Source: an uncultured Victivallales bacterium
GTDB taxonomy: Bacteria; Verrucomicrobiota; Lentisphaeria; Oligosphaerales; JABHEG01
Length of the DNA stretch: 64,000 bases
Direction: 5' to 3'
Assembly: GCA_964607765.1 (NCBI GenBank)
Contig: CAZSNT010000033.1
Location: 3,955-67,954 of the forward strand
The notes under the pieces: model-generated
Databases searched by the model: none
What the model was told of the DNA's origin: nothing
Seen by the model: only the letters and a program-made list of their open reading frames with translations
In this document: one piece after another, positions 12,851 through 49,073 of the stretch
Layout: each line of letters starts with the position of its first letter
Numbering within the stretch: position 1 is the stretch's first letter
Program-made: the position numbers and the translations under genes

Positions 12851-13064
12851 TTCCTTGTGCGCAACCCGCGCAGCCGCTATGCTATTGGCAGGACGGCGGC
12901 GGGCAGCGGCTGGCTCGACATGGGTGTTGCCAGGCGTTCTTGCCGCCGGTTCTCCGGGCGCCGGCAGCAGCTCTGAGACGGCACGGAGACCTGTCGGCCG
13001 AAGGCCCCCCGGAGTACCTGCCGGTCACACGCCGCGTCAGAAGCAACACTGGAGGTGTGGTTCC

Positions 13065-21827: not shown

Positions 21828-21944
21828 TACCGGCGGGACGATCGACTGCAGTCGTCAGCAATCGGACGCAACCGACAGCGATCAACTTCCGGAGTAGGAC
21901 CAGCGACTTACGGTTTGCGACTGGCGGGTGCCGTGTTCCATGCC

Positions 21945-21979
21945 GTTTTCCGGACACCTGAACACCGAACACCGAACAC
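21945..21979 (+). repeat. GTTTTCCGGACA copy fused to a CYGAACA heptamer x3 repeat, just upstream of a sulfatase start
   Basis: GTTTTCCGGAC is at 21945-21955 and is followed by cctgaaca ccgaaca ccgaaca (21957-21978). The ATG of the next gene is at 21991. Confidence 0.8.
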
Positions 21980-21990
21980 TGGAAGCCACG

Positions 21991-23469: not shown

Positions 23470-23470
23470 C

Positions 23471-26265: not shown

Positions 26266-26401
26266 GCCGGGTCTTCCGCCGGAAGGCTTGAAGAATGGGG
26301 GAGAACCAAAGGACGATCCTAACCATCGGCAAGCAAGAGAATTCGACAGGAATACGTGCTGTCAACTTTGACAGAGCCTGAACGGGGGACAGGAGATGAT
26401 C

Positions 26402-30187: not shown

Positions 30188-30214
30188 TGTCTCCAATCGC
30201 TTGACGATGTCGAC

Positions 30215-30264
30215 GACGATAGCGGATGACGAGTGCAAGCGCCCGATCGTTCGCCGCTATCGTC
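30215..30264. repeat. 11-bp inverted repeat GACGATAGCGG / CCGCTATCGTC with a 28-nt spacer
   Basis: The arms are at 30215-30225 and 30254-30264, with a further direct copy CCGCTATC at 30267. It sits between two sulfatase genes and could be a terminator stem or an operator. No T-tract follows. Confidence 0.5.
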
Positions 30265-30307
30265 ACCGCTATCCTCAACCGACAGAGACCGGAAAACGGA
30301 GAAGACA

Positions 30308-31789: not shown

Positions 31790-31921
31790 AGGACTCAGAA
31801 CACGAAACACCATGACTCCGGAAGCCGCCGCCGCCGCCCGACAGTTGCCGATGGCTACCGATGGCTGCCGGAAACAGCCGACCGCCGCCGACTGGACTGT
31901 AAGTAGCAGAAGCGAGTACAG

Positions 31922-33400
31922 ATGACAACGAAACCCAACGTCCTTCTCCTTTTCTCCGATCAGCACCATGCGGATGCCATGAGTTGCGTCGGCACTACCA
32001 TTGTGCAGACGCCGACCTTCGACAGGCTGGCGGCCGAAGGAGTCCGGTTTGCCCGGGCCTACTGTCAGGATGCTATCTGCGTGCCTTCGCGGGTCTCCAT
32101 GATGAGCGGCCTCTACCCCCGAACAACCGGCTGCCTCGACAACCCCAACTGCCCGATCGACCCCGGGCAGTACGTCATGCTGCAGCGCCTCCTGCAGAAC
32201 AACGGGTATCGGACGGGATGCTTCGGCAAGCGGCATCTTCCGCACAGGAACGGCGGACAGATGTGCATGGGGTGGGACCGAAGCGCCACCACCATCAACC
32301 CGAAGCTCGACCCCTCCGACGAGAACTACTGGGACTGGCTGAAGGAGACCGGTCGCTACAAGGCATATTCGGAAACCGCCGGTGAGAACGTCCACAATTC
32401 CGACCTGTTCTGTCTCGTGTCGCACCTGGAGCCGGATGAAAGGGACGCTGCCTACACGGCTGACAAGGCCATCGAGTTCCTCCATGAGAACCAGGATCAG
32501 CCGTTCTTCTGCTGGGCATCGTTCCACGGTCCTCACCAGGCCTATGTGCCGCCGCAGAAGTGGATCGACATGTATCCCTACGACTCGATTCCACTGCCTG
32601 AGAACATCAGCGAACCGGTGGAGAATCTCCCGCCGGAGCTCCAGGGCTGGCGCCGCAACGAGAACCAACCGTGGAATCTGGGCACGGCCGCCAGGGACCA
32701 CGCGCTCTATCGGACCTACATCTCGCACTACTTCGCGCAGGTGACCGAGGTCGATCACTACGCCGGCCGGATCATCGACGAACTGGAGAGCCTGGGGCTG
32801 CGGGACAACACGATCGTCATCTACGCTTCCGACCATGGCGATTTCATGGGCCGGCACGGAATGGCCGAGAAATGCGCGCTTGGGCACAACGTGTACGAGG
32901 ACACGTTGCGCGTGCCGCTCATCGTCTCGTGGCCCGCCCGGTTTGACCGAGGCCGTGTCAGTGCGGAACTCGTGGAGTTGCTGGACGTTTACCCCACTTT
33001 GGTCGACTTGCTGGATCTCGAACTCCCGGCTGACACGCAGAGCCTGCAGGGGGTCTCGCTCAAGCCGATCCTCGAGGGCGACGACGCCCCGATCAGAGAA
33101 TACGCAGTCTCCGAGAACTGGTCGCAGGTCAGCATTGTCACAGACAAGTACAAGCTCGGGATCTGGGTCGATCCCGGCCCCATCGATCGGTACAGCATCC
33201 GCGATTTCCGGGGTCGGCATCCCGACATGCTCTTCGATCTGGAGGCCGACCCCCTCGAAGTCAGCAACCTGATCGACAGTCCCGCCCACGCAGATGTCCG
33301 GAAAACACTGTACGGCTACTACGAGCAGTGGTGCGAGAAAACGCCCGACACAGGCCGGACTGCCATCATCGATGCCTGGCTCCAGGGCCCAGCCGAGTAA
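31922..33400 (+). CDS. Cys-type sulfatase, no signal peptide
   Basis: It starts MTTKPNVLLLFSDQHH, carries the CVPSRVSMMSGLYP signature and contains VIYASDHGDF. It is a close paralogue of 23471..24967. Confidence 0.9.
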   Translation: MTTKPNVLLLFSDQHHADAMSCVGTTIVQTPTFDRLAAEGVRFARAYCQDAICVPSRVSMMSGLYPRTTGCLDNPNCPIDPGQYVMLQRLLQNNGYRTGCFGKRHLPHRNGGQMCMGWDRSATTINPKLDPSDENYWDWLKETGRYKAYSETAGENVHNSDLFCLVSHLEPDERDAAYTADKAIEFLHENQDQPFFCWASFHGPHQAYVPPQKWIDMYPYDSIPLPENISEPVENLPPELQGWRRNENQPWNLGTAARDHALYRTYISHYFAQVTEVDHYAGRIIDELESLGLRDNTIVIYASDHGDFMGRHGMAEKCALGHNVYEDTLRVPLIVSWPARFDRGRVSAELVELLDVYPTLVDLLDLELPADTQSLQGVSLKPILEGDDAPIREYAVSENWSQVSIVTDKYKLGIWVDPGPIDRYSIRDFRGRHPDMLFDLEADPLEVSNLIDSPAHADVRKTLYGYYEQWCEKTPDTGRTAIIDAWLQGPAE

Positions 33401-33410
33401 GGGAAACAGC

Positions 33411-34949
33411 ATGTGTGAGTCCGCTCGCTCGAACCACAGACCGAACCTGCTCTTCATCATGACCGACCAGCAGCGTTGGGACGCGTTGAGCCTGGCCGGC
33501 AATGCCATCCTCCACACGCCGAGCATGGACCGTATCGGGCGTGAAGGGGCGTACTTCGAGCTGTGCAACTCGCCCTGCCCGGTGTGCGGTCCGGCCCGCA
33601 GCAGCATGCTGGCAGGATGCACGGTGGAGAACACACAGGTACGCACGAACATGGATGCAGACGTGGCGGGCCGCATGCCCATGCCGAGCTATGACGAGAT
33701 CCTCGCCGACCAAGGCTACGCCACGGAGTATTACGGCAAATGGCACGCTCCCCTCGGCCGGGCTCTGAAGTACGACAACACCGTCACCCCTGCCGGCGTC
33801 GCCAGGTGGGAGCATGGCCCGGGCATGAGCCCCGACTACCAGGACTACCTCAACCAGCACATGCCGCGCACGAGCCTGTCGGGCATGACGGGTATGCAGG
33901 AGCAGACCCTCGATCTGCGCCCCTACCGCACGAACCCACTCGACACCCGCCACGGCCTCGAGCCGGGCGTGGACATGCCCGTGGTACAGCCCGACCAGCA
34001 CGGCGTGTCGACTGTCCCCGCTGAGCACACGATCACGGCTTACCAGGCGAAGTCGACTATGGACGCCCTCGAACGCCTCGCCTGCCAGGGTCGGCCCTTC
34101 TCGCTGCACTGCTCGTTCCACTGTCCCCACTCGCCGATCACACCGTCCGAACCGTATGCCTCCATGTACAAGGCCGAAGACATGCCGGTGCCAGCCAGTA
34201 TCGGCGATCCCATGGACAACTCGCCCTACTTCCACGAGAACGGGCGTTCGCGGTTCACGCAGTACGCCGATGCAACCCGGATCGGCCACATGATCGCCAA
34301 CTACTACGCATCCGTCAAGGAGATCGACGTTTGGGTGGGTAGGATTCTCGACAGACTGGATGAGCTGGGTTTGGCCGACAACACCATGGTCATCTTCACC
34401 TCGGACCACGGCGAAATGCTCGGCGCCCACGGCATGCGCGAGAAGAACATCTTCTACGAGGAATCCGTGCACGTTCCGTTGCTTGTCCGATTCCCGGGCC
34501 GTATCGCCGCCGGGACAGTTGTCCCCGCCCCCCTCTCGCAGATGGACCTGTTCGCCACCATCCTCGACTACCTCGACGCGGGCTCTCATGACTCCGATGG
34601 CGAAAGCCTGCGTCGATACATCGAGGCGGACGCGCCCGGTGACGATGCCTACGCAGTGAGCGAGTGGAACTGGCGCGGCCCGGTCCAGCCCAACCTGATG
34701 ATCCGCACCAAACGCTGGAAGTTCTTCTGCCCCAACCGCGCCGACTCCGAGGTCATGAACGTCCTCTACGACCTCGAAGCCGACCCCCACGAGATGAACA
34801 ACCTGCTCGGCAACAACCCCGAAGCAGAGCAATCGCGCCACCAGGCCGAGCACCTCAAGTCCCTGCTGGTCCAATGGCTGGAAAGAACTGCTTCGCCCCA
34901 TCTCGGTGAAGTGAGAAGCCGCGACGCTGTGGCCAAATCAAGGGACTGA
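33411..34949 (+). CDS. Cys-type sulfatase, no signal peptide
   Basis: ORF 33294..34949, trimmed to ATG 33411 (MCESARSNHRPNLLFIMTDQQRWD). The signature is CPVCGPARSSMLAG and it contains VIFTSDHGE. Confidence 0.9.
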   Translation: MCESARSNHRPNLLFIMTDQQRWDALSLAGNAILHTPSMDRIGREGAYFELCNSPCPVCGPARSSMLAGCTVENTQVRTNMDADVAGRMPMPSYDEILADQGYATEYYGKWHAPLGRALKYDNTVTPAGVARWEHGPGMSPDYQDYLNQHMPRTSLSGMTGMQEQTLDLRPYRTNPLDTRHGLEPGVDMPVVQPDQHGVSTVPAEHTITAYQAKSTMDALERLACQGRPFSLHCSFHCPHSPITPSEPYASMYKAEDMPVPASIGDPMDNSPYFHENGRSRFTQYADATRIGHMIANYYASVKEIDVWVGRILDRLDELGLADNTMVIFTSDHGEMLGAHGMREKNIFYEESVHVPLLVRFPGRIAAGTVVPAPLSQMDLFATILDYLDAGSHDSDGESLRRYIEADAPGDDAYAVSEWNWRGPVQPNLMIRTKRWKFFCPNRADSEVMNVLYDLEADPHEMNNLLGNNPEAEQSRHQAEHLKSLLVQWLERTASPHLGEVRSRDAVAKSRD

Positions 34950-35149: not shown

Positions 35150-36085
35150 ATGTCGCACAAGCAACAACCAGACTCCCTGGACTCCCCCGGCGACGCAGGA
35201 AGTGAAGGTATGGATTTCCGCAGCTTGGTGTCCGCCATCCGCCAGGTGCATGCGCACTGTACTGCGCAGGCCAGAGGCGCGGTGAACGTCTGTCTGACTC
35301 TTCGCAACTGGACTGTCGGTTGCTACATCCGTGAATACGAACAGAGAGGCGCTGACCGCGCGCAGTATGGTGCCAATCTGCTCGACAGGCTGGCCACGTC
35401 ACTTCATGGCGCGCTCGACAAGTGCTACACGGCAAGGTACTTGCGCATCTGTAGACGGTTGTACGAGGTGTACCCGCAAATTAGGAAATCGGTGATTTCC
35501 GAATTCAGCGCCAGGACGAAAGGGAAATCGGCGATTTCCAAATTGCCGGAGCATTCGGCAGACAGTGACTGCCAAATCGACACGTCTGCTCCGGTCTCGG
35601 TGTCTCTTCCCGCCGACAGACTGGTCAGGCATCTCTCCTTCACTGCGCTTGCGGAGCTCGTCAAAATCGACGCCCCCCTGAAGCGCGCATTCTACGAGGT
35701 CGAGTGCATCCGCGGCAACTGGTCGGTCCGCGCACTCAAGCGGCAGATCGCCACTCTCTACTTCGAGCGTTCCGGCTTGTCCACAGACAAAGAGAAGCTG
35801 GCAGCCATGACGCAGAGAGGCGCCGAAATCGAAGAGCCGAAACTCGCCATTCGCGACCCGTACGTCTTCGAGTTCCTCGGGCTTCGGCCCCAGGACGCCG
35901 TGGCGGAAAGCGACCTGGAGGCGGCGCTCGTCGAGAACTTGCGGGAGTTCCTGCTCGAGATGGGGCACGGTTTCTGCCTCGAGGCCCAGCAGAAGAGCAT
36001 TGTCATCGGCAACACTCGCGGCTTCGTCGATCTGGTGTCATGGAAGCGGAATGACGACTATGTCGACGTACGGCTGAGAGATTAG
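35150..36085 (+). pseudogene. DUF1016 / YhcG-like PD-(D/E)xK nuclease family gene, C-terminally truncated
   Basis: NVCLTLRNWTVGCYIREYEQRGADRAQYG, APLKRAFYEVECIRGNWSVRALKRQI, IRDPYVFEFLGL and LREFLLEMGHGFCLEAQQK match my recollection of DUF1016 proteins. The ORF stops at ...GFVDLVSWKRNDDYVDVRLRD, right after the first acidic motif and before the expected E-x-K core and C-terminal part. Confidence 0.65.
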
Positions 36086-36087
36086 GA

Positions 36088-36154
36088 CGAAAGATGAAGG
36101 CGAAAGATGAAGGGGGACCACTCCGAGGCCCTGATCTTTCGCCCTGATCTTCAC
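36088..36154. repeat. Imperfect long hairpin made of tandem CGAAAGATGAAGG x2 and inverted CCCTGATCTTYSR x2
   Basis: The left arm is cgaaagatgaagg cgaaagatgaaggggg (36088-36116). The right arm is gccctgatctttcg ccctgatcttcac (28-54). The inner 13 positions pair with 2 mismatches and the outer arm pairs less well. It ends 7 nt before the GGAAGGAG RBS of the next sulfatase. Confidence 0.6.
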
Positions 36155-36175
36155 AACCCCGGAAGGAGCGACGAA

Positions 36176-38152
36176 ATGAGAACAGACCACACGCTTGCAG
36201 CCGCCGTCCTGATCTCTGCTGCCGGTGTCTTTACACCATTGGGCGCCTCAGGTGCGGCGGTGCGGCCAAATGTGATGTTCATCGTCTGCGATGACCTGAA
36301 CACGCACGTATCCACGTCGGGGTATCCCCACATCTCCACGCCGGCCTTTGATTCGCTGGCTGCCTCGGGCATGACCTTCCACCGCGCGTATTGCCAGTAT
36401 CCGGTGTGCGGCCCGTCGCGGGCGTCGTTCCTCAGCGGGCTGTACCCGCAGTCGACCGGCGTGATCAGCAACAAGGCGGACATCCGTCGCACGCGCCCGG
36501 GAACAGTGACCATGCCCGAACGTTTCAAGCAAGCCGGCTACTGGACGGCACGGGTGGGCAAGGTCTACCACTCGCCACACACGAACCCCGGCGAACGGGC
36601 GTGGTGTGAGACCCCGGAACGGTTCAAGAACGACCCAATGCCGACCGAGATCGAGGCCCGCAAGCAGTTCGAGGCCAAACACGGCCCCGTCACCGATCGG
36701 GGCAACGGCAAAGCCTGGCGCGAGTTCCGCTACTCGTACGCGACACAGTTACGCGATCAGCACGTCGGCTACGGCCCGAGCGGCCTGCGGGACGAGCAGC
36801 ACAAGGACGGCAAGAACGCCCGGCAGGTCGCCGAGTGGTTAGGGAAGAAGGCGCACGGCAGCAAGCCCTTCTTCATCGCCTGCGGCATTCACAAGCCCCA
36901 TGTTCCCTTCCTGGCCCCGGACAAGTACTTCGACATGTACCCGCGCGAAAGTCTGACATACATCCCGACGCCGCCTGCATTCTGGAACCAAGCGCCGAAG
37001 TCGGCAGTATCTGGCCGCTACAAGGGGTTCGGGTTCGAGCTGGGCGTCGAGAACGACAGCCTGCGACGCGAGTACATGCAGGCCTATCACGCCTGCATCA
37101 GCTTCGTCGACGCGCAGATCGGCCTGGTCCTCGACGCCCTCAAGCGCACCGGACATTGGGAGGACACCATCATTGTCCTCACCTCGGACCATGGCTACCA
37201 CCTCGGCGAGCACTTCATGTGGGGCAAAGTCACGCTGTTCGAAGTGTGCGATCGCGTGCCGCTGGTCATTCGCGTGCCCCGGTCGCTGAAGGCCGGCGCA
37301 ACCACGGCCGGGGCATCCAGCCAGGGGCTGGTCGAGCTGGTGGATCTGTACCCGACCCTGGCGGAGTTGTGCGGCGTGAAGGCGCCCTCCGACCTCCAGG
37401 GCCGCAGCTTGGTGCCCATGCTGCGCGATCCGAAGACCAAGGGCAAGGAGGTCGTTTCCACCGTCGTCAGCCGCGGCGCCAAGCTCGGAAAGGCAATCCG
37501 CACGGCTCGCTGGCGCTACGCCCGGTACCCGGACAACACCGAGGAACTCTACGACTTGGAGAACGACCCGCGCGAGTGGAAGAACCTCGTGACGTCGCCT
37601 GAGCGCGCGCCCGTGCTGGAGAACATGCGAAAGAAGCTCGCGGAGATGGATGCACGCGCCGCCGCGCAGAAGACCGCCCCCCTCCCGAACTGGGCGCAGA
37701 TCGACAGCCCCAAGCTGGTGCCGGGCCCGGGCGTCCGCATGGTCCCGCACACGGAGGCCGGGGATTCCGCGCGGATGTCGCCCATCGAGATCAAGGGGCG
37801 TTCCGCCTGGAAAGCGGAGAAGCGGGCCAAAGGCAAACCCACCTACGCCTACTTCCGGCTTGAGGACGAGAATCTCCGCAACGGCAAGCAACCCCGCGTG
37901 CAGGTCTCTATCACGCTCCTGGACAAAGGCAACGCCAGCACCGCCATCCAGTATGACCCGAGCGACGGCAAACCGTTCAAGGTGCTGAGGAGAATCGAAC
38001 TGGGATCCTCGGGCCAATGGCGGACTGTGGTCTTCAACATCGACGACGCCCGGTTCGCTGGACGTTGCCACGGTGCCGACCTGCGCCTGGGCTTCAACGG
38101 CGCGAAAACAGATCCCGTGATCGCCGAGGTGACAGTCAAACCGCGCAGATAG
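36176..38152 (+). CDS. Cys-type sulfatase, exported, fused to a C-terminal ~150-aa uncharacterised module
   Basis: ATG 36176 lies 7 nt after GGAAGGAG. The signal is MRTDHTLAAAVLISAAGVFTPLGASGA. The signature is PVCGPSRASFLSGLYP and it contains VLTSDHGY. Residues encoded by about 37685-38149 form the recurrent module (...TYAYFRLEDENLRNGKQPRVQVSITLLD...IQYDPSD...WRTVVFNIDDARFAGRCHGADLRLGF...). Confidence 0.85.
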   Translation: MRTDHTLAAAVLISAAGVFTPLGASGAAVRPNVMFIVCDDLNTHVSTSGYPHISTPAFDSLAASGMTFHRAYCQYPVCGPSRASFLSGLYPQSTGVISNKADIRRTRPGTVTMPERFKQAGYWTARVGKVYHSPHTNPGERAWCETPERFKNDPMPTEIEARKQFEAKHGPVTDRGNGKAWREFRYSYATQLRDQHVGYGPSGLRDEQHKDGKNARQVAEWLGKKAHGSKPFFIACGIHKPHVPFLAPDKYFDMYPRESLTYIPTPPAFWNQAPKSAVSGRYKGFGFELGVENDSLRREYMQAYHACISFVDAQIGLVLDALKRTGHWEDTIIVLTSDHGYHLGEHFMWGKVTLFEVCDRVPLVIRVPRSLKAGATTAGASSQGLVELVDLYPTLAELCGVKAPSDLQGRSLVPMLRDPKTKGKEVVSTVVSRGAKLGKAIRTARWRYARYPDNTEELYDLENDPREWKNLVTSPERAPVLENMRKKLAEMDARAAAQKTAPLPNWAQIDSPKLVPGPGVRMVPHTEAGDSARMSPIEIKGRSAWKAEKRAKGKPTYAYFRLEDENLRNGKQPRVQVSITLLDKGNASTAIQYDPSDGKPFKVLRRIELGSSGQWRTVVFNIDDARFAGRCHGADLRLGFNGAKTDPVIAEVTVKPRR

Positions 38153-38210: not shown

Positions 38211-38243
38211 TCCGGCACTGGAGCGGTGCCAAAGGAGCCCCAC

Positions 38244-40649
38244 GTGAAAACACATCTCATCCTCGTCGCAATCTCGCTGGCTCTGGCCTTCGCCACCAGT
38301 TGCGGCCATTCCGCCGTCAACCGCGCCGGCACAGACGTTCAACCCGCGTTTACGGGCCCCGATATCTCCGTCCGGCTGGACGCGAACCCGGCCCTGGCGC
38401 GCGGCGTGGCCTACCTGTCCACGCATGACGAGTCCAGGAACGGCTTTGTGACGCGGCAGGGCAGCGGCGGCTGGCAGGAACAGAGGATGATGTACTTCGC
38501 CGCTACAGACGAACGCTTCAAGCAGGGGCGGACGCCTCTCGTCAAAGTCCACATCGCCTACTTCGACGAGGGCCGGGGCCTGGTCGTGATCAAGTACGAC
38601 TCGAGCGACAAGCATGTCAACCCCGGCAAGAACGCCGGTGTATGGAAGAGCGAGAAGGCGATCGTGTTGACCGACTCGCAACAGTGGCGCACGGCCGAGA
38701 TCATACTCCGCGACGCCCATTTCGCCAACCGTTGCAACGGCGGCGACTTCCGGCTCGAGGGCGCCCCGGTCATCGTCCGCGTTCTGCGCATCGTGGCCGC
38801 CTCGCCGGAGGACCAGGAGCGTAACCGCGTCGCCCTGCGCAACGCACCGCCCCCGCTCGAGGCCAAGATCCAGCCCTTTGCCCTGAGCATGGCCGAAGTC
38901 CTGGCCAAGCTCCGTCCCTACCGCGGCCCCAGCGAGCCGGGCACTGACACCACCACTCTGACCAACAAGGTGATGTGTGGCTACCAGGGATGGTTCAGCA
39001 CGCCGGGGGACGGCTCCGGTCAAGGCTGGACCCACTACAGCGGCGCGATCGGGTTCAAGCCAGGAAGCTGTTCCATCGACCTCTGGCCCGACGTGTCCGA
39101 ACTCGATCCCGACGAGAAGTACGAGACGTATTTTCGACATCGCGACGGCAGCACGGCGCACGTCTACAGCCCCATGAACCGCAAGAGTGTCGTCCGTCAC
39201 TGCCGCTGGATGGCCGAGGCCGGCATCGACGGCGTCTTCGTGCAGCGCTTCGCAAGCGTTGCCGGAAACGCCAAAGCAGTCTACAAGAACAACACCGTGC
39301 TCATGAACGTGCGCGAAGGCGCCAATCGCCACGGCCGCGCCTACGCACTCATGTACGACCTGTCCGGCGGCCGAGGCGCCGCCGACAGGATCATTGCCGA
39401 CTGGAAGTCGCTCGTGGACGGCATGGGGCTGAGCAAGGACCCCAAGGACCGCGCCTACCAACATCACAACGGCAAGCCCGTGGTCGCACTCTGGGGCCTC
39501 TTCGCCGAGCGCGACTACTGCCTGCCCGTGTACGAACGCCTCCTCGACTTCTTCAAGAACGACCCGAAGTACGGCGGTTGCACCGTCAAGGTCGGCGTCA
39601 ACAACAACTGGCGCGTCGGCAAGAGCGCCAACCACGACCGCGTCCGCCGCATCATCCAGCAGGCGGACATCGTGTCGCCCTGGACGGTCGGCCGTTACGC
39701 CACGCCCGAGGGAGCCGACCGGCACATGCGAACCCACAACGTGCCGGACCAGAAGTGGTGCGACGCCCACGGCAAGGACTACATGCCGGTCATTTTCCCC
39801 GGCTTCAGTTGGCACAACATGCGCCACGGCCAGTCTGCCCTCGGCGCTACACCACGCCTGCAGGGCCGCTTCCTCTGGCGCCAGATCACCGCCGCCAAAG
39901 CCGCCGGCGCACGCATGCTCTACATCGCCATGTTCGACGAGGTCGACGAGGGCACGGCCATGTTCAAGTGCACCAACGACCCGCCCGTCGGCGCCAGCCC
40001 GTTCCTCGACTACGAAGGACTGCCGAGCGACTACTACCTATGGCTGGCAGGCCAAGCCCGGCTCCTGCTCGAGGGCAAACTCGAACCCACACGGCGTCCC
40101 CCTGCGCGTCCCGGCCTGGTCATCGACTACAAGTCCGAAGACGGCACGGGTCTGCCCGAGGGTCTCGACGAGATCTCCGTCGTGCTGCGCAATCCGCAGC
40201 ACTGCCGCGGCCTGCGCCTCAAACCGCACGGCGCCGAATCCCGCAACATCCCCGCTGTCAAGGGCGGTCGTCCCGCCTGGGTCAGCACCCCCAAACGCGG
40301 CCCGGACGAAGGCCGCATGATGTACATCAAAGTCGAGTACGCCGGATTCCGCAACGGCCGAACCCCGCATGTCCGGCTCACCATCGACTACTTCGACAGC
40401 GGCGAGGGCGAGGTCCGCGTCGTCTACGACTCCAGCGACAAGACCTGGGGCACCGTCCCCAGCCGTCCCGGCGCCTGGAAAGAAGCCGGCCGCTTCATCC
40501 TGGGTGCCTCCAACACCTGGAAGACCGCCACCTTCGATATCCCCGACGCGCTCTTTGTCGGCCGCTGCAACGGTTGCGACATCCGCCTCGAGTTCCCCGC
40601 CACTGCCGACCTCGCCCTCGGCGCCGTGCGACTAAAGAAGATACCGTGA
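38244..40649 (+). CDS. Exported (lipoprotein-like) protein: accessory module, uncharacterised GH-like catalytic core, second accessory module
   Basis: GTG 38244 lies 6 nt after AAAGGAG (VKTHLILVAISLALAFATSCG). The N-terminal module is at about 38355-38798. The core (KVMCGYQGWF...GIDGVFVQRF...VSPWTVGRY...FPGFSW...AMFDEVDEGT) is paralogous to 24964..26265. The C-terminal module is at about 40173-40646 (...MMYIKVEYAGFRNGRTPHVRLTIDYFDSGEGEVRVVYDSSD...WKTATFDIPDALFVGRCNGCDIRLEF...). Confidence 0.7.
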   Translation: MKTHLILVAISLALAFATSCGHSAVNRAGTDVQPAFTGPDISVRLDANPALARGVAYLSTHDESRNGFVTRQGSGGWQEQRMMYFAATDERFKQGRTPLVKVHIAYFDEGRGLVVIKYDSSDKHVNPGKNAGVWKSEKAIVLTDSQQWRTAEIILRDAHFANRCNGGDFRLEGAPVIVRVLRIVAASPEDQERNRVALRNAPPPLEAKIQPFALSMAEVLAKLRPYRGPSEPGTDTTTLTNKVMCGYQGWFSTPGDGSGQGWTHYSGAIGFKPGSCSIDLWPDVSELDPDEKYETYFRHRDGSTAHVYSPMNRKSVVRHCRWMAEAGIDGVFVQRFASVAGNAKAVYKNNTVLMNVREGANRHGRAYALMYDLSGGRGAADRIIADWKSLVDGMGLSKDPKDRAYQHHNGKPVVALWGLFAERDYCLPVYERLLDFFKNDPKYGGCTVKVGVNNNWRVGKSANHDRVRRIIQQADIVSPWTVGRYATPEGADRHMRTHNVPDQKWCDAHGKDYMPVIFPGFSWHNMRHGQSALGATPRLQGRFLWRQITAAKAAGARMLYIAMFDEVDEGTAMFKCTNDPPVGASPFLDYEGLPSDYYLWLAGQARLLLEGKLEPTRRPPARPGLVIDYKSEDGTGLPEGLDEISVVLRNPQHCRGLRLKPHGAESRNIPAVKGGRPAWVSTPKRGPDEGRMMYIKVEYAGFRNGRTPHVRLTIDYFDSGEGEVRVVYDSSDKTWGTVPSRPGAWKEAGRFILGASNTWKTATFDIPDALFVGRCNGCDIRLEFPATADLALGAVRLKKIP

Positions 40650-40680
40650 TGACATCGACGGGCGGAAGAGAGAACACGTG

Positions 40681-40691
40681 GTCCGGAAAAC
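40681..40691 (-). repeat. Solitary exact copy of the abundant motif (GTCCGGAAAAC on the + strand)
   Basis: It lies in an intergenic region, 29 nt upstream of the operator-like palindrome at 40720. Confidence 0.8.
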
Positions 40692-40719
40692 GACATGCGG
40701 CTTGTCACACGTCTCCTTC

Positions 40720-40733
40720 CGTAAACGTTTACG
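40720..40733. promoter_or_regulatory. Perfect 14-bp palindrome CGTAAACGTTTACG, LacI-family operator-like (O1)
   Basis: It is self-complementary with a central CG and AAACG/CGTTT half-sites, the architecture known for LacI/GalR/PurR/CcpA-type operators. It ends 7 nt before the -35 box. A LacI-family gene lies downstream in the same gene string. Confidence 0.6.
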
Positions 40734-40740
40734 TCTGCGA

Positions 40741-40769
40741 TTGATTGCTTCGGAAATGCCGCGTATAAT
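40741..40769 (+). promoter_or_regulatory. Sigma-70-like promoter TTGATT-N17-TATAAT
   Basis: The -35 TTGATT is at 40741-40746, the spacer is 17 nt, and the -10 is a perfect TATAAT at 40764-40769. It lies 60 bp upstream of ATG 40829. Applying the E. coli consensus to this phylum is an assumption. Confidence 0.55.
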
Positions 40770-40779
40770 TGACGTGAGT

Positions 40780-40793
40780 CGTAAAGGTTTGCG
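40780..40793. promoter_or_regulatory. Second operator-like site CGTAAAGGTTTGCG (O2, 12/14 identical to O1)
   Basis: It starts 11 nt downstream of the -10 box. Both sites are followed by TCTG, giving an 18-nt direct repeat CGTAAASGTTTRCGTCTG, centre to centre 60 bp. Confidence 0.5.
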
Positions 40794-40828
40794 TCTGGAT
40801 GCATGACAGGGCGGCAAGAGAACCAGCA

Positions 40829-43711
40829 ATGACCAAATTGATCAGCACCTTCGCCTTGATCCTCACCGTGTCGGCCGCGTTCGCCGACAAGCCCAATCTG
40901 GTGCTCTTCTACGCCGATGACTTGGGTTGGGGCGATCTGAGCGTGTACAACAAGGAACCCGGTTACTTCCGACACACGCCGAACATCGACCGGATCTTCG
41001 AGCACGGTGTTCGGCTCGAGAACTACATGACGCACTGCGTTTGCTCGCCCTCGCGCGCCGGATTGCTGACCGGAAAACACTATGCGACGGTGTCGGCCGG
41101 CCCGGCCACGGGCGGCACGCTGCCGAACGACATCCGGAACATAGCGAAGGACTTCCGGGCCGCCGGCTACAGGACCGGCGCGTTCGGCAAGTGGCACAAC
41201 GGCATGCCCAATTTCCCGGCAGACGGCAACGGCCAGGCGTTCGACTACAACAAGGACAGGGTCTGGAATGAGTTGCACCGTCAACACACCTGCGATCTGA
41301 CCAACGGCATCTTCGACAACCACAAGGGCTGGGAGTGGGGCGACGGCGTGAATGCCTACGGGTTCGACCGCTGGGTGGGCTATTACAACGGCGGCGGGGA
41401 CCTCTTCGACCGGTATGTCAACTGGCACCACGACATCGATTGGTGGCATGACCGACGGTACGTCCCGGACGAGAAGGGGTACACCACCGACCTGATCACG
41501 ACGCACGCCGTCGCGTTCATCGAACAGAGCAAGGGCAAGCCCTTCTTCTGCTACATCCCCCACGAAGCCGTGCATGCGCCGCTGCAGGTCAAACTGGCCG
41601 ATCTGAAGGCGCTGTGCAGGCGGTTCCCCGGCGAGTGGGAGTACGTGCGCAACGTCGTCAGCCCCAGAAGCGGGCGCCGAATCGAGGACGCGGAGGAGAT
41701 CCGCTGCGAGGGCGGCGCCGAGTTCGACGCCGGCAAGATCGATCCGGAGAAGAAGCGTTTCCAACCGTTGATCTACGCCACCTACCTCTACTCGCTGGAC
41801 GCGAGCGTGGGCCGCGTGATGCAGAGAATCGAGGAACTGGGTCTCGCGAGCAACACGATCTTCCTCTTCACTGCGGACAACGGTGCCACGTCGGGCGGCT
41901 GCAACCTGCCGTTCCGGGGCAGCAAGCACACGCTCTGGGATGGGGGCGTCCACGTGCCTGCTGCGGTCTGGTGGCCAAGGAACTTCGATGCGAACACCGC
42001 ACCGTATACGCCGGGGAACAACCGATACACCGGGTTCATCGGTTACCTCGATCTGTACCCGACGCTGCTGTCCATGGCCGGCCAGTCCTGCCTGGCGCAG
42101 GGCCTTGACGGGATGGACTGCTGGAAGAACCTGAAGGACAACACCAATCCCCGGCCCGGCATGGAGAACGCCTATCACTGGATGTGGAGTGACCACGGGA
42201 TGATCCGCACGAACGGCTGGAAGTTGTTCTACTCCGAGAGCGCCAAGCGGGTCGAGCTGTACGATCTCGCGGCGGACGTCGGAGAGGAGACAAACGTCGC
42301 TGCCGCCCACCCGGAAGTACGCGACACGCTGATCGGTATGCACAGGAAGTGGCTCGCCGACAATGGGTATGCCGTGTCGTACCTGCCGGTTGACAAGACC
42401 CGTGTCGGAGCGCCAGCCCCGAAGGGCGACGTGTTGGAGATCAGGGCCACGCAGACGCGGGACTTGGGGAACGCGCACAATGAGGGCGTGTACCTGCGTC
42501 TGGCCAAGAGCGATGGCTGGGGTGAGAAGCTCGGCGGCTACGTCGAGTGCGGCGATCAGCTTGAGTACGATATCTACGTCTGCGAAGACAGCGACATCTC
42601 GCAGGGCATCTCCTACTGTGCCGGCGCGGGCTGGAAACCGTTCCTCAACCCGCGGAACGGTCTGAACCAGGACGGCGCGTCCCCGCAGCTGCTCGAGCAC
42701 CGGAAGGGTACCTGGACGCGTCAGGCGGTCGGCATCGGCAATATGTGTCCGCGCGCCATGGTGGTCAGCTACGTCGCCTTGCAGAGCCGGAAGGCCGGGA
42801 CTCACCACTTCTATCTGGACAACGTGGTTGTGCGCCGCAGCGACGGCACGATCCGGAACGTTGTCTGGGCGTCGCGGAACGACTCGGGGCCGCTGATCGT
42901 GCGGCATCGGAACAGGAACTACAACAAGCTCGCGGACGCGCTCGGCGCAAAGGGCTTCCCGTTCAGCGCGATCGACATCACGGCGACTCAGGTCGATGCG
43001 GTCACACAGGCCAAGCCCAAGGAGGCACGACAGCCTGCCGACGAGGGCGCTTCGTGGACGCCGCTGTTCAACGGGAAAGACCTCTCGGGGTGGTCCGTGC
43101 AGTGCCGCCCGAAAGACCGGGACAAGGGCTACTGGCGAGTAGACGCGGGCTCAATCCTGGTCGATTCGGTCGGTCACAGGGACCACAACTACATCTGGCT
43201 GATGAGCGACGGCGAGTACTCCGACTTCCGGCTGAAGCTCAAGTTCCAGATCCACAAGGGCATCAGTGGCAACAGCGGCGTGCAGATCCGCAGTCGCTAC
43301 GACACTGCTGCCGGCTGGCTGGACGGTCCCCAACTGGATATCCATCCCCCGAATCCAATGCGGGCGGGGTTGATCTATGACGAGACCCGGGGCACGAAGC
43401 GCTGGATCTGCCCCTCGCTGGAGAAAGGGAACCACAGGATCCCCGCGGCCAAGACAAACCCGAAAGTGAAGCTTGTCTACGGTGAGGGGACCTGGAACGA
43501 GATGGAGATCGTCGCGCAGGGCACGCACATCACGTGCATCGTCAACGGCGAAGTCGCGTCCGACTACGACGGTGCAGGTGTGCTGGATGATGCGGACCAC
43601 CGGGACCACAACGTCGGGCTGCGGGGACATGTCGCCCTGCAGTTGCATTCGCGAAGCGAGCTGAAGGCTCGTTTCAGGGACATCCGCATCCAGGAGAGGA
43701 CGAGTAAATGA
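40829..43711 (+). CDS. Exported Cys-type sulfatase fused to a central beta-sandwich-like region and a C-terminal DUF1080 (3-keto-disaccharide hydrolase family) domain
   Basis: The preferred start is ATG 40829 ([19 protein letters not shown] signal). The signature is [15 protein letters not shown] and it contains LFTADNGA. The C-terminus [12 protein letters not shown]...[11 protein letters not shown]...[12 protein letters not shown]...GNSGVQIRS...[19 protein letters not shown]...GHVALQLH...FRDIRIQE is the DUF1080 pattern. Confidence 0.85.
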
Positions 43712-43868
43712 GAACGCACCCTCACCGGAGCCGGAACGGGTCGGCGGGAGAATGAAGCGTTATGTTATCGCCACAGAAACAGGCTGCATCTTCGAACCCG
43801 GACTACAGCGGAATGGCCTCAGGATAGGGGCGGTGTGGACGCTCTGCACGCGGGACCAATCTCGCTCA

Positions 43869-43900
43869 CCCACGGCACAAGGCCGTGGGGGTCGTTCGCA
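43869..43900 (+). promoter_or_regulatory. GC hairpin (CCCACGGC-acaag-GCCGTGGG) running into the box GGCCGTGGGGGTCGTTCGCA
   Basis: The box at 43881-43900 is near-identical to 45357-45377. It lies 76 bp upstream of the Tat-oxidoreductase ATG. Confidence 0.5.
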
Positions 43901-43975
43901 AACATTCCAGCAACCCAGCAATCCAACAATCCAACTGGGCATGAGACTGCTGTGACTGAGAACAGGAGTACGAGC

Positions 43976-45274
43976 ATGAATACGTCCCGCCGGGAGTTCA
44001 TCCAACGGGCAACCACGTGGGCGGGTGCCGCGGCAGCGCCGGTCATCCTCCCTTCGTCTGCCTGGGGGGCAGCCGGAACCGTGGCGCCAAGCAACCGTCT
44101 GAACATCGGCCTCGTCGGCATGGGCAAGATGATGTGGGGGCACATGAACGGCTTCCTTGGCCGGAAGGATGTGCAGATCATCGCTATCAGCGACGTGGAG
44201 ACAAAGCGCCTGGACAAGTGTGCTGAGAAGATCAACAGTACCTACTCGGAACGCTTCGGCAAGGACTACAAGGGCGTTCAGATTTGCCGAGACTTCCGCG
44301 AGCTTAACGCCCGCCCAGACATCGACGGCGTGGCCATCGCCACCCCGACCAACTGGCACGCCATCCAGTCTATCGATGCCATGAAGAACGGGAAGGACGT
44401 CTACTGCGAGAAGCCGCTGACCTTAACCATTCAGGAAGCGGAGGCCATCAAGCTCGCCGCGCGGCGCTACAACCGAATCTTCCAGACGGGCAGCCAGCAG
44501 CGCTCCGATTTCAAGTTCCGCTTCGCCTGTGAACTCGTGCGCAACGGTGCGATCGGCAAGATCAAGATCGTGCACGTGAACTGTGGCGGCCCCGCCCGCG
44601 ACTGTTACCTGCCCGCGCAGCCCACGCCCGAGACTCTCGACTGGGACCGCTGGCTGGGGCCTGCTGCCATGCGTCCGTACAACGAGAAGCTCTGTCCGCT
44701 GGACGACCACAAAGGCTGGCCGCGATGGCGTGACTACTGGGACTACTGCGGCGGCGGCATGTACGACTTCGGCGCGCATCACTTCGACATCGCACAGTGG
44801 GGGCTCGGCATGGACGGGACAGGCCCCGTCCAGATCATCCCGAAGGAAGCCAGTGAGCACAAGCTCCTGACCTACGTCTACGAGAACGGCGTCCCGATGA
44901 CGCATGGAGGCGCCAAAGGCGGCGGATCGATTCAATTCGTCGGCGAGAAGGGCACCGTGAATGTGGGACGCGGCTTCCTCAAGACGGACCCGGAAGACCT
45001 CATGAAGGTGAAATGGGGCCCGGCAGACACCCGTCTGTACGAAAGCCGCGACCACAAGGGGAACTGGCTCGACGGCATGCGCACGCGCCGTCCCTGCATC
45101 TGCACGGCGGGAGTAGGCTGCAGCACCATCACGGTCTGCAGCTTGGGGAACATCGTCTACCGCCTGAAACGCACACTGAAGTGGGACCCGGCACGGGTGC
45201 AGTTCGTCAACGACCCGGCCGCTGACCGCCTGCTTGGAAGGAGCATGCGGGCACCGTGGACTCTCACTGTTTAG
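43976..45274 (+). CDS. Gfo/Idh/MocA family oxidoreductase with a twin-arginine (Tat) signal
   Basis: ATG 43976 lies 6 nt after ACAGGAG. MNTSRREFIQRATTWAGAAAAPVILPSSAWG has the SRRxFI Tat motif. It contains the Rossmann motif LNIGLVGMGKMMWGH and ...VYCEKPL. Confidence 0.85.
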   Translation: MNTSRREFIQRATTWAGAAAAPVILPSSAWGAAGTVAPSNRLNIGLVGMGKMMWGHMNGFLGRKDVQIIAISDVETKRLDKCAEKINSTYSERFGKDYKGVQICRDFRELNARPDIDGVAIATPTNWHAIQSIDAMKNGKDVYCEKPLTLTIQEAEAIKLAARRYNRIFQTGSQQRSDFKFRFACELVRNGAIGKIKIVHVNCGGPARDCYLPAQPTPETLDWDRWLGPAAMRPYNEKLCPLDDHKGWPRWRDYWDYCGGGMYDFGAHHFDIAQWGLGMDGTGPVQIIPKEASEHKLLTYVYENGVPMTHGGAKGGGSIQFVGEKGTVNVGRGFLKTDPEDLMKVKWGPADTRLYESRDHKGNWLDGMRTRRPCICTAGVGCSTITVCSLGNIVYRLKRTLKWDPARVQFVNDPAADRLLGRSMRAPWTLTV

Positions 45275-45328
45275 ACCAGAATGGTGCCGGGATGAGGCCA
45301 AGAAACTGCTGCACGTGGCCCTGCGACC

Positions 45329-45377
45329 CCACCCACCTTGCGTGGGTGGTGAGCGAGGCCGCGGGGGTCGTTTCGCA
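45329..45377 (+). promoter_or_regulatory. GC hairpin (CCACCCAC-cttgc-GTGGGTGG) followed by the box GGCCGCGGGGGTCGTTTCGCA
   Basis: The hairpin is at 45329-45349 (8-bp stem, 5-nt loop) with no T-tract. The box is at 45357-45377, 55 bp upstream of ATG 45432. Compare 43869-43900. Confidence 0.5.
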
Positions 45378-45431
45378 GCTTACCCTACCCTCATTCATGC
45401 CTGGACCACGCTAGTAACAGGAAGCTCGACA

Positions 45432-48400
45432 ATGAAGAGATACCTGCACATCTATACCGTCCTTCTGTTTGTCTGCGGCGCGGCGAGCGGGGCGCCGGAG
45501 GGACTCAAGCCGCCATCCGAAGCGGACATTGCGAAGATGGAAGCCGCCATGCCGGCCAAGCCGACCGTCAAGCCGACCAAACCGCGCAAGCTCCTCATTT
45601 TCTCGCAGTGCGAAGGGTTCAAACACTCCTCCATCCCGTTCGGGGAGAAGGCGTTCGAGATCATGGGCAGGAAGGCCGGCGCGTTCACTACCGTCGTGGC
45701 GGATGACTGCGCCATCCTGGAATCGCCCGAGTTCGACACATTCGACGCGATCCTGATGAACAACTGCACCATGCGTCTGCCCCTGCTGAACATCGACACA
45801 AAGGGCATGGACGAGGAACAGAAGGCCGCCGCGGACGAGCGTGAGGCCAAGGCGCAGAAGCGCTTCCTGGATTTCATCCGCAACGGCAAGGGCCTTATCG
45901 GTGTCCACGCGGCAACCGACTGCCTCTACAAATGGGAAGAGTACGGCGAGGCCGTGGGCGCCTACTTCTGGGGGCATCCATGGAGCGAAGACGTCGGCGT
46001 GAAGCTCGACGATCCCGGACATCCACTGCTTAAAGCCTTCAACGGCCTGCCATTCATCGTGGGCGATGAGATCTACCAGTTCCGCGAGCCGTATTCACGT
46101 GACACACACCGCGTCCTGCTCAGCATCGACCCGGCAGAGACCAACATGAACAAGGACTCGATCCGGCGCGAAGACGGCGACTTCGGGGTCGCGTGGATCC
46201 GGGAATACGGGAAAGGCCGCGTCTTCTACTTCTCGCTCGGCCACCGGCATGAGATCTTCTGGAACGCGCCACTGATGCAATGCTATCTGGACGGCATCCA
46301 GTACGCGTTCGGGGACCTGAGGGCGGACGCAACACCCAGTGCTCAGCTCAGTCCCGAGTACCTGGCGGAATCGGCTGCCGCAGCGCTGGCCACCGGGCTG
46401 GAGAGTGTCTTTGCCGAACTGAAACGCTACACGCTGGGCGAGGACGAGAGTGTCCCCAAGCAAGTTGCGGCCCTTGTCGTCGAGCATCAGGGAACGGCGG
46501 GACCGGTCCGAAGCCAGGTCGCACGGCTGTTCGCAGCATTGGCCGCGAACACCGAGGCGACGCCCGACTCCCGGGTATTCGCCTGCAGACAGTTGCGCCT
46601 GATCGGCGGCGAAGCGGCCGTGCCGATTCTCGTCGGACTCCTGAAAGATGACGCTCTCCGCCACCCGGCACGCATGGCGCTCGAGGCCATCCCGGGAGCT
46701 GCCGTCGACACCGCGTTGCTCAGAGCACTCCCGAACAGCAACGGCCTGGCCAAAGCCGCCCTGATCGAGTCGCTCGGAGCAAGAGGCGCAACCGCAGCAT
46801 CCTCGGCACTGACCGAGAGCCTGCGCAGTGCAGAGCCCGTGGTTGCGGAGTCCGCAGCCAACGCGCTGGGCCGGATTGGCGGGAAGCAGGCGGCTGACGC
46901 GCTGCTGGCTGTGCGCGCAAGCGTGCCCGATACGCTGAGGCCCGCCGTCGACCGCGCCATCCTCGCGTGTGCGGAGTCCGCGCGTCTGGCGGGCCATGCG
47001 ACAGCCGCGGCGCCATGCTACGCTGCATTGGCGGCGCCCGACGCTGCCCCGCACATCCGCGCCGCAGCCGTGTATGGCCAGGCCATGATGAAAGGCGCGC
47101 CTGCCGCAACCGAAGTGGCCGAGGCGCTGCGGTCCGAACCCCGGGAGATCGCGCAAGCCGGTGCGCGGCTTGTCCGAGCTCTTCCCGGGGAAACGGTCGT
47201 CACACAGACATGCCAGGGCCTCGCCACGCTCTCCCCTGCCACTCAGGCTCTGGCGCTCGATGCTTTGGCTGCCCGCGGTGACCGCCGGGCGCAGGATGCC
47301 GTGCTGGCGCTCATCACGACTGAAAACGCGAGCGTCCAAGCAGCCGCTCTGCGCGCTTTGGAAGCCCTTGGCGATGCCAAGTCAGTAATGCCCGTTGCCG
47401 CTCTGGCCGCCGACGAGGAGGCCGACAAGAAGGTGCGGGAGGCGGCACGTCAGGCGCTCGAGCGCATGAACGGGCCCGGGGTCGACCAGGTCCTGATCGA
47501 CGCCATGGCCGAGGCGGGAACTGCGGCCAAGATCGAGTACGTCAAAGCGCTGGGCACGCGCAAAGCGCGAGCCGCCCTACCCGCGCTCTATGACAGCGTT
47601 CTGGCAGAGGACAGGACGCTCGCGAAGGAGTCCTGCAAAGCGATCGCGGTCTTGTGTGAAACATCCGAGCTGCCGAAGATCGTCGACCTCATCATCGAGA
47701 CGTCGAGCAGCAGCGTCAGGACGCAGCTCGAAAACACACTTGTGAACGTGGCACGACGTACGGATGGTGAGACCGCGAAGGTCGCCGCCGCCCTTGCGGG
47801 TCTTGAGCGGAATCCCCCGAAACCGGCCCGCATCTCTCTGCTCGCGGCCCTCGGTAAGATTGGGGCCGCACCGGCGCTGCCCGTCTTGGAGACGGCTTTG
47901 AAGGACGCTGACGTGGAGATCCAACGGGCGGCTGTGAAGGCGCTGGCGGACAGCTGGCCGACTGCCGACCCCATTCTCTCGTTACGGAAAATCAGCCGCG
48001 AGGCGGAGGATCTGGTTCTCCGCGTGCTGTCGCTGCGTGGGTACGCACGCATGCTGGCGCTGCCCAGCGATCGGCCCATGTCAGAGACTCTCAAACTCTA
48101 CAATGAAGCGTTGGAGCTGGCGAAAGGCGACCAGGAGAAACGCACACTGATCACCGGTTTGGGCGAGCTGGCTCATCCCGATGCCCTCACCGCCGTGAGA
48201 CGGTTCCTGGACGACGAGGCCGTGCAGGAAGAAGCCCTGATGAGCGCGCTCAGTATCATGCAGAACGTCGGCGGCAAAGGCATGACATTCGATGCGTGTG
48301 TGAAACCCAAGACCGGGTCGAACGCAATCGATGGCAACCCGAAGACCCGCTGGACCAGCGGCAAGCGCATGACGGGCGGCGAGTGGTTCCAGGTCACACT

Positions 48401-49073
48401 GCCGTACGAGACACAGATAAGGGAGATCTTCCTGGACGCCGGCCAGGAGGGGCGCGATCAGCCCCGCGGTTGGGAAGTCTACGTGTCGCGTGATGGCGAG
48501 AACTGGGGCGAGCCGGTCGCTACCGGAGACGATCCGAAGAAGAAGGCCTTTACGATCACGTTCCCCCCAAGAGACGGCCGCTGCGTGAAGATCGTGCAGA
48601 CCGGCACGGCAGGTCTCTTCTGGTCCGTCAACGAGATCCGCATCAACGGCCTGCCGGACCTCAAAGAGCTCTCTGAAATCCCCTCGGACAGCTGGAAAGT
48701 CTCAGCTGCGCGCTCCGCTAAAGACGCGCCGCCGGAGAACGCCATCGACGGCGACAGAGAGAAGCGCTGGGGCACGGGCGGCGGCATGAAGCCCACCGAC
48801 TGGTTCATGATCGACATGGGCGAGGAGCGCACCGTACACAAGATCGTCATGGACGCTGCCAAGTCCGGAAGCGACTACCCGCGTGAGTACCGCATCTACA
48901 GCTCCCTCGACGGCGAGGAGTGGTTCGGTCCGATCGGGGCTGGAAAAGGCGAGAAGGCGCTCGTCACGGCAGTCTGCCTGCCAACCAAGGCGCGGCACAT
49001 CAAGATCACCCAGTTGGGAGACGAAGAGAAGAAGTGGTGGTCGATGTACGACCTCCAGATCATTGGAGAGTAG
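45432..49073 (+). CDS. Exported giant protein: ThuA-like domain, long HEAT-repeat region, two F5/8 type C (discoidin) domains
   Basis: The start is ATG 45432 (MKRYLHIYTVLLFVCGAASGA signal). The ThuA blocks are KLLIFSQCEGFKHSS, GKGLIGVHAATD, GAYFWGHPW and GKGRVFYFSLGH. The middle has many ...ALGxxGxxxAxxxL... HEAT-like repeats. The C-terminus has AIDGNPKTRWTSG...WFQVTL and AIDGDREKRWGTGG...WFMIDMG. Confidence 0.8.
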   Translation: MKRYLHIYTVLLFVCGAASGAPEGLKPPSEADIAKMEAAMPAKPTVKPTKPRKLLIFSQCEGFKHSSIPFGEKAFEIMGRKAGAFTTVVADDCAILESPEFDTFDAILMNNCTMRLPLLNIDTKGMDEEQKAAADEREAKAQKRFLDFIRNGKGLIGVHAATDCLYKWEEYGEAVGAYFWGHPWSEDVGVKLDDPGHPLLKAFNGLPFIVGDEIYQFREPYSRDTHRVLLSIDPAETNMNKDSIRREDGDFGVAWIREYGKGRVFYFSLGHRHEIFWNAPLMQCYLDGIQYAFGDLRADATPSAQLSPEYLAESAAAALATGLESVFAELKRYTLGEDESVPKQVAALVVEHQGTAGPVRSQVARLFAALAANTEATPDSRVFACRQLRLIGGEAAVPILVGLLKDDALRHPARMALEAIPGAAVDTALLRALPNSNGLAKAALIESLGARGATAASSALTESLRSAEPVVAESAANALGRIGGKQAADALLAVRASVPDTLRPAVDRAILACAESARLAGHATAAAPCYAALAAPDAAPHIRAAAVYGQAMMKGAPAATEVAEALRSEPREIAQAGARLVRALPGETVVTQTCQGLATLSPATQALALDALAARGDRRAQDAVLALITTENASVQAAALRALEALGDAKSVMPVAALAADEEADKKVREAARQALERMNGPGVDQVLIDAMAEAGTAAKIEYVKALGTRKARAALPALYDSVLAEDRTLAKESCKAIAVLCETSELPKIVDLIIETSSSSVRTQLENTLVNVARRTDGETAKVAAALAGLERNPPKPARISLLAALGKIGAAPALPVLETALKDADVEIQRAAVKALADSWPTADPILSLRKISREAEDLVLRVLSLRGYARMLALPSDRPMSETLKLYNEALELAKGDQEKRTLITGLGELAHPDALTAVRRFLDDEAVQEEALMSALSIMQNVGGKGMTFDACVKPKTGSNAIDGNPKTRWTSGKRMTGGEWFQVTLPYETQIREIFLDAGQEGRDQPRGWEVYVSRDGENWGEPVATGDDPKKKAFTITFPPRDGRCVKIVQTGTAGLFWSVNEIRINGLPDLKELSEIPSDSWKVSAARSAKDAPPENAIDGDREKRWGTGGGMKPTDWFMIDMGEERTVHKIVMDAAKSGSDYPREYRIYSSLDGEEWFGPIGAGKGEKALVTAVCLPTKARHIKITQLGDEEKKWWSMYDLQIIGE

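Follow-up and report, generated by a model that had tools for sequence, protein, structure and literature searches.

The window, by which we mean the whole 64-kb stretch of DNA analysed here, has a G+C content of about 63% and carries a 32-kb string of plus-strand genes that extends from a HAD hydrolase gene through a gene for a LacI-family protein. The string opens with genes for a HAD-type hydrolase (17770-18765) and a GH38 alpha-mannosidase (18888-21827), the first two genes in the upstream part of a presumed regulon. They are followed by genes for seven sulfatases, one unknown protein and one ThuA protein (21928-34949), a DUF1016/YhcG nuclease (35150-36085), another sulfatase (36107-38152) and a GH99-like protein (38226-40649). 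The DUF1016/YhcG gene, which codes for a PDDEXK nuclease, interrupts the sulfatase string midway, with 21 bp between it and the following sulfatase gene, and looks like a foreign insertion. Outside the string, a phage-integrase-like ORF on the minus strand (11569-12402), whose match is confined to the N-terminal SAM-like domain, adjoins a sequence (12720-16007) coding for a 1095-aa protein with a middle part like the hydrazine synthase alpha subunit and with F5/8C and cytochrome c-like domains.

The operon that closes the string begins, according to Pfam, with a sulfatase fused to a 3-keto-disaccharide hydrolase (DUF1080) domain (40829-43711, plus strand; operon gene 1). In the public annotation of this gene (P0121, 100% identical, 970 aa) the start is the ATG at 40799. 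The alternative ATG at 40829 would give a classical signal peptide, and the N-termini of the homologues favour neither start. The fusion was seen in none of the nearest relatives: P0122-P0125 are 68-70% identical, have 714-741 aa, cover about 75% of the gene product and do not contain the DUF1080 domain. Operon gene 1 is followed by plus-strand genes for a Gfo/Idh/MocA oxidoreductase with a Tat-like signal (43976-45274), a ThuA-HEAT-F5/8 type C multidomain protein as assigned by Pfam (45234-49073, the exact start codon being uncertain) and the LacI-family regulator (49093-50172), whose gene is separated by 19 bp from the one before it. For the gfo-like gene, the true start codon is the ATG at 43976, which gives the Tat-like N-terminus MNTSRREFIQ and agrees with L001, the locus of the closest orthologue of the regulator. 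In L001, the same ThuA-HEAT-F5/8C gene precedes the LacI orthologue.

A spacer of 264 bp (43712-43975) separates operon gene 1 from gfo-thuA-lacI, and we found no operator, promoter-like or terminator-like site within it. Part of this spacer, ATGAAGCGTTATGTTATCGCCAC from 43752, can be aligned with the spacer between the GH99-like and gfo genes of L001 (2575-2735), in which an ORF of 47 aa has been called. The aligned part may be a small leader ORF or some other conserved element.

A predicted promoter between two palindromes

The first-pass annotation had described a promoter bracketed by two LacI-type palindromes in front of operon gene 1, and each element of that description was found. The upstream palindrome, the predicted operator O-up (40720-40733; CGTAAACGTTTACG), is a perfect 14-bp palindrome with a central CG. 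Just downstream of it is a -35 hexamer, TTGATT (40741-40746), separated by 17 nt from a -10 hexamer, TATAAT (40764-40769). Past the -10 box comes the predicted operator O-down (40780-40793; CGTAAAGGTTTGCG), a 12/14 copy that is symmetric apart from its GG centre. Both copies are directly followed by TCTG, and their centres are 60 bp apart, which at 10.5 bp per turn corresponds to 5.7 helical turns. With the transcription start set, here and for all operator positions given below, at 7 nt past the -10 hexamer, the predicted start is near 40776, and O-up and O-down would be centred at about -49.5 and +10.5. Relative to the start codon, the centres lie at -102.5 and -42.5. In the lac promoter, +10.5 is where lacO1 is located.

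The promoter matches the consensus at 10 of 12 positions. No other match of 10/12 or better exists on either strand of the 64-kb window, where 0.54 were expected, and this sole strong match sits exactly between the two palindromes. With near-consensus hexamers, a spacer within the 16-18-nt range and a gene downstream, it is a genuine-looking sigma-70 promoter. Two other readings of the region were rejected. An Rfam scan of 40300-41100 gave no match to any RNA family, which disposes of a riboswitch or leader RNA in that interval. As for a terminator, the perfect palindrome has no loop and no T-run and gave no terminator-like match.

O-up is of the kind described for the LacI family, an even palindrome of 14-22 bp with a central CG (Ravcheev et al., 2014; PMC4052901). 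In that survey, the local regulons of the family have CG-centred even palindromes located 30-140 bp upstream of start codons, more than 75% of the sites fall within the usual range of distances from the start codon, and both -102.5 and -42.5 lie inside this range. Co-localisation with the target genes and tandem sites are common, multiple sites being present in 20% of the operons, with common inter-site distances peaking at 13, 22 and 32 bp (PMC4052901). The spacing of 58-60 bp found here and in an orthologous locus falls outside these peaks. The survey covers neither this lineage (Lentisphaerota-like, PVC) nor sulfatase, GH38, GH99-like, ThuA, Gfo or DUF1080 targets.

It had also been stated that the other gaps read contained no further copy of the palindrome. 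A search with the 14-mer, allowing three mismatches, contradicts this: CGTAATCGTTTACT is present at 17677-17690, in the 418-bp divergent gap before the HAD gene. This predicted third operator is centred at about -50.5 of a predicted promoter, TTGAAC (17700-17705)-N16-TATTCT (17722-17727), that heads the HAD/GH38/sulfatase string. In the search for a second operator downstream of this promoter, just a left half-site, ACAAACG, was seen at about 17730. The same divergent gap contains a weak operator-like sequence, CGTAATCCATTTCG (17459-17472), which is 107 bp upstream of a minus-strand APH/fructosamine-kinase-like gene (16423-17352).

Could the palindromes be functionless, leftovers of chance or of a local duplication? 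The TCTG after both copies could hint at a duplication, and the raw search at up to three mismatches is not significant, as its three sites in the window form an unremarkable count that was reached in 12 of 100 shuffles. However, the degenerate core GYAAWSGTTTRC, which we derived from the sites of the window and of the orthologous loci, had three exact matches in the window against 0.057 expected, an over-representation of about 50-fold that is somewhat optimistic because the core was partly built from the window's own sites. None of 300 first-order Markov simulations reached three exact matches, and all three are intergenic. Matches with one mismatch were absent from the window. Those with two mismatches lie, with one exception, outside the two promoter gaps, and within the annotated 16-51 kb they then fall in coding sequence. 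With a position weight matrix, all three window sites scored above 21, while 2.3 Mb of unrelated LacI-family loci gave three matches of at least 16 and one of at least 19. Independent support for the operators comes from orthologous loci: in distant ones the motif and the layout are conserved, and the flanking TCTG is not. The palindrome motif is far beyond chance, and the core-motif excess together with the conserved layout effectively refutes chance or duplication, readings to which we give almost no credence.

The motif in orthologous loci

Thirteen proteins group with the regulator encoded at 49093-50172, with E values below 1e-57 followed by a gap to 1e-37. The nearest of them, 75% identical, comes from Lentisphaerota MAGs. 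We compared the window with eight further independent loci, those of the six closest proteins and two more, L093 and L094, which were obtained by scanning metagenome contigs with an alignment of seven sequences. A profile search of genome contigs with an alignment of 14 LacI sequences returned generic LacI-family genes, the best being 34% identical among the matches listed and none an orthologue, and the loci of these genes were used as a background set only.

The motif was found in the promoter regions of four of the eight loci (L003, L004, L006 and L094), in each case those of the regulator's own operon. The four regulators (P0002, P0004, P0005 and that of L094) are 43-64% identical to the one in the window. 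In L003 (64%), CGTAAACTGTTACG and CGTAATCGTTTACG are located at 1273 and 1354, 81 bp apart, upstream of the LacI gene. One of the L003 sites is nearly identical to CGTAATCGTTTACT, the preceding AAAA included. In L004/L005 (47%), AGCAAAGGTTTGCT and CGCAAACGTTTGCG (8449 and 8549) lie in the divergent region heading the LacI-containing operon. There, CGCAAACGTTTGCG abuts a TTGACA, and two more core matches are found in other intergenic gaps. In L006 (47%), CGCAAAGGTTTGCG and CGTAAACGTTTGTG (8285 and 8343) bracket TTGACA-N16-TACAGT immediately upstream of LacI-HAD-GH38-sulfatase, and in L094 (43%), TGTAAAGGTTTGCG and TGCAAAGGTTTGCA (6978 and 7090) lie upstream of GH38-LacI. In the window and the orthologous loci with the motif, each of the 11 exact core matches is intergenic. 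These sites support the initial assignment of the palindromes as LacI/GalR-type operators.

Five of the 11 strong sites collected have a GG centre. In the window, L004 and L006, one operator is CG-centred and the other GG-centred (AAAGGTTT); in L094 both are GG-centred, and the order of the two types varies between loci. The recurrent pairing may represent a deliberate combination of a strong and a weak operator. As called publicly (8311-9393), the LacI orthologue of L006, P0005, begins within the predicted -35 box, and its coding sequence spans the downstream operator. The resulting N-terminal extension is not conserved, and a likelier start is the GTG at 8371, which has GGAG before it.

The window and L006 share the same layout, that is, site, 7 nt, -35 box, 16-17 nt, -10 box, 9-10 nt, site, with regulators that are 47% identical. 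The L006 operators are centred at -48.5 and +9.5 and those of L003 at -51.5 and -132.5. An arrangement of site, 7-9 nt, TTGAnn, 16-17 nt and TAnnnT recurs in four promoters while the rest of the sequence has diverged, and this recurrence supports both the promoter and the operators.

Other loci were without a clear site. In L001/L002, the closest locus (regulator 75% identical), no site was found within three mismatches. L001 does not have the sulfatase-DUF1080 gene and the operator module, and its contig has 162 bp ahead of the GH99-like gene. Those 162 bp (1-162) contain three copies of GACAGAAC/GTTCTGTC and no LacI-type box; the repeats may be sites for another regulator. L090, L092 and L093 showed no clear site within their short upstream sequence, and in L092 a half-degenerate box is found inside a TTGACG-N16-TATACT promoter. 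No site was present in L173 and L174, which have orthologues of the sulfatase and no LacI orthologue, suggesting that the motif travels with the regulator and not with the sulfatase.

Some points favour the possibility that the operators at this locus are genuine and of LacI type but serve a paralogue from another part of the genome, such as a global regulator like CcpA or PurR, and not the local gene product. Another paralogue could use the motif, CGyAAAsGTTTrCG, since it is close to the generic consensus of the family (the cre or PUR box). In addition, GCAAACGATTGC boxes also occur in unrelated LacI loci of the background set, and the closest orthologue locus, L001, has no site. However, four independent loci have the motif together with an orthologue of this very regulator, in the orthologue's own operon, the sulfatase-orthologue loci without the regulator do not have it, and the other LacI loci gave a background of about one strong match per 2.3 Mb. 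We regard a paralogue as improbable; the operators are most probably bound by the product of the LacI-family gene that ends the gene string.

In L006, the LacI orthologue is immediately followed by the orthologues of the HAD, GH38 and sulfatase genes, and its counterparts in L092 and L094 have GH38 genes next to them. Together with the third operator, this gene adjacency suggests that the regulator most probably controls both ends of the 32-kb locus. Judging from these sequences, it probably governs the whole of it.

The regulator and its possible mode of action

As first noted, 49093-50172, at the 3' end of the gene string, is the sole LacI-family gene in the window, which we verified with tblastn. 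Its product combines a LacI-type HTH at the N-terminus with an effector domain like a periplasmic binding protein, the two parts that characterise the family (PF00356, 48.6 bits against a cut-off of 27; PF13377 Peripla_BP_3, 100 bits; PF00532, 47.2 bits), and it aligns over its full length with CcpA, PurR and LacI. It reached no NCBIfam equivalog cut-off and is therefore an uncharacterised member of the family. The hinge residues Y46-x-P48-N49-x-x-A52-R53-N54-L55 are invariant across the seven closest orthologues. In the PurR and LacI structures, the hinge leucine inserts into the central base-pair step of the operator, a role that L55 presumably has here as well.

A tetrameric repressor that bridges both operators and loops out the 60-bp promoter segment, much as at lac O1/O3, had been considered compatible with the spacing. 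The promoter is indeed bracketed by two sites, and Muller et al., as cited in PMC2475640, reported repression maxima for tetrameric LacI at operator spacings of 59.5, 70.5 and 81.5 bp, close to the spacings in the window (60), L006 (58) and L003 (81). However, in a phmmer alignment with E. coli LacI (1lbg_A), residues 5-337 of LacI were aligned with residues 4-351 of the query, of which eight residues were left. Since the alignment stops at LacI residue 337, the C-terminal leucine-heptad helix for tetramerisation (about residues 340-357) has no counterpart in 49093-50172. The C-terminal tails of the orthologues are short, unconserved and variable in length and sequence, and the closest solved relatives, CcpA and PurR, are both dimers. 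Moreover, the two-site spacings in the five loci are 58, 60, 81, 100 (L004) and 112 bp (L094), the third site of the window is single, and 60 bp amounts to less than six full turns. The lack of a LacI-type tail and the dimeric relatives, with varied spacings of which some lie near the LacI maxima and others do not, leave looping by a tetramer unsupported, and we consider it highly improbable. Two dimers at O-up and O-down may cooperate, as some of the spacings are near the optima reported for LacI; nothing requires that they do.

The position of the best-conserved site, at about -50, is outside the core promoter and unusual for simple steric repression. Activating or dual-function sites are known for CcpA, Cra and GalR at OE, and GalR bound ahead of the -35 box can influence RNA polymerase via the alpha-CTD. 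Possibly, the conserved -50 site too is activating or has a dual function, in which case occupancy of one site or the other would decide the effect. Four promoters have their strongest or sole site ahead of the -35 box, with centres between -48.5 and -51.5, and at the 17677 promoter no further site overlaps the core promoter. Yet most members of the family are repressors that are released by a ligand (PMC4052901), and the second sites of the window and L006 are at +10, the classical position for repression. Furthermore, L004 and L094 have the site next to or overlapping the -35 box or the start, and all the transcription starts are themselves predictions. Activation from -50 thus seems unlikely. 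Equally doubtful, in our view, is an arrangement in which a LacI protein without a tetramerisation helix uses a conserved pair of unequal operators, one CG- and one GG-centred, at about -50 and +10, with two dimers clamping the polymerase or the promoter DNA over a mere 58-60 bp or with the -50 operator allowing the protein both to activate and to repress the 32-kb sulfated-glycan locus.

We consider it likely that 40720-40793 is a sigma-70-type promoter flanked by operators of the LacI-family repressor encoded 8.3 kb downstream (49093-50172). Every feature of a LacI/GalR-family repressor-operator system that can be looked for in silico was found here; the feature expected of a tetramer loop was not. 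When no sugar effector is available, a repressor dimer on O-down (about +4 to +17) would block open-complex formation or promoter escape. A second dimer on O-up (about -56 to -43, abutting the -35 box) would add to the repression, either by hindering contacts of RNA polymerase or its alpha-CTD or by cooperating with the downstream dimer. A sugar from a sulfated, probably mannose-containing glycan would then release the repressor, and the genes for the sulfatase-DUF1080 protein, the Gfo oxidoreductase and the ThuA-HEAT-CBM protein would be switched on. The operator at 17677-17690 would place the HAD/GH38/sulfatase string under the same regulator.

Read-through would also bring expression of lacI and hence negative autoregulation, which the first-pass annotation had proposed and which 72% of the members of the family show (PMC4052901). 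Such autoregulation of lacI, at the end of the same gene string, is likely, provided that transcription continues across the 264-bp spacer (43712-43975). Such read-through into gfo-thuA-lacI is plausible, and an independent promoter for these three genes could also lie within the spacer.

The proposed system is similar in several respects to E. coli lac, a sugar-responsive system with its main operator at about +10.5, just past the -10 box, and an auxiliary one, likewise a palindrome, ahead of the promoter. Unlike at lac (O1 at +11, O3 at -82), the upstream site here is at about -50 and the tetramerisation helix is absent. The operators also differ from the lacO type in being even palindromes with a CG or GG centre, which resemble the PurR and CcpA boxes, and the regulator gene, which is probably autoregulated, comes last in the operon that it regulates. 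The PUR box consensus for E. coli PurR is ACGCAAACGTTTGCGT, and the cre consensus for Bacillus CcpA is TGWAANCGNTNWCA. The half-sites found here are almost the same (GCAAAC/GTTTGC or GTAAAC/GTTTAC, around a central CpG). PurR and CcpA are by sequence the closest proteins of solved structure and have the hinge leucine in common with 49093-50172. In contrast, they are global regulators that need a corepressor or HPr-Ser-P, whereas 49093-50172 appears to be local to a glycan-utilisation locus. At E. coli gal, with GalR at OE (-60.5) and OI (+53.5), the regulator is dimeric and two operators bracket the promoter, as they appear to do here. The gal operators, however, are separated by 113-114 bp, and HU is required for looping; here the two sites are 58-60 bp apart (window and L006) and the downstream one overlaps the start region.

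The feature is real but ordinary, very probably a LacI/GalR-type repressor-operator switch with a textbook mechanism. Its value is in the definition of a regulon for a sulfated-glycan locus in a poorly studied PVC lineage and not in a new mechanism; gene regulation in Lentisphaerota-like (PVC) bacteria is almost unstudied. Searching the literature for LacI proteins that regulate sulfatase loci in Lentisphaerae brought up nothing relevant. What emerges is a testable predicted regulon for a sulfatase-rich glycan locus, with three operators, two promoters and about 18 genes, among them nine sulfatases, the GH38 alpha-mannosidase, the GH99-like enzyme and the ThuA, Gfo and DUF1080 genes for oxidative glycoside cleavage. 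With the motif and the regulator, the remaining members of the regulon could be sought in related genomes, as could the inducing sugar, which in turn would hint at the polysaccharide substrate.

One further observation concerns an unrelated group of LacI-family regulators, whose loci each carry two exact GCAAACGATTGC boxes just upstream of the regulator gene: L112 (9897/9984), L126 (9898/9984), L143 (7706/7792) and L145 (3203/3289). The two boxes are a constant 86-87 bp apart, a spacing much better conserved than that in the orthologue group of 49093-50172.
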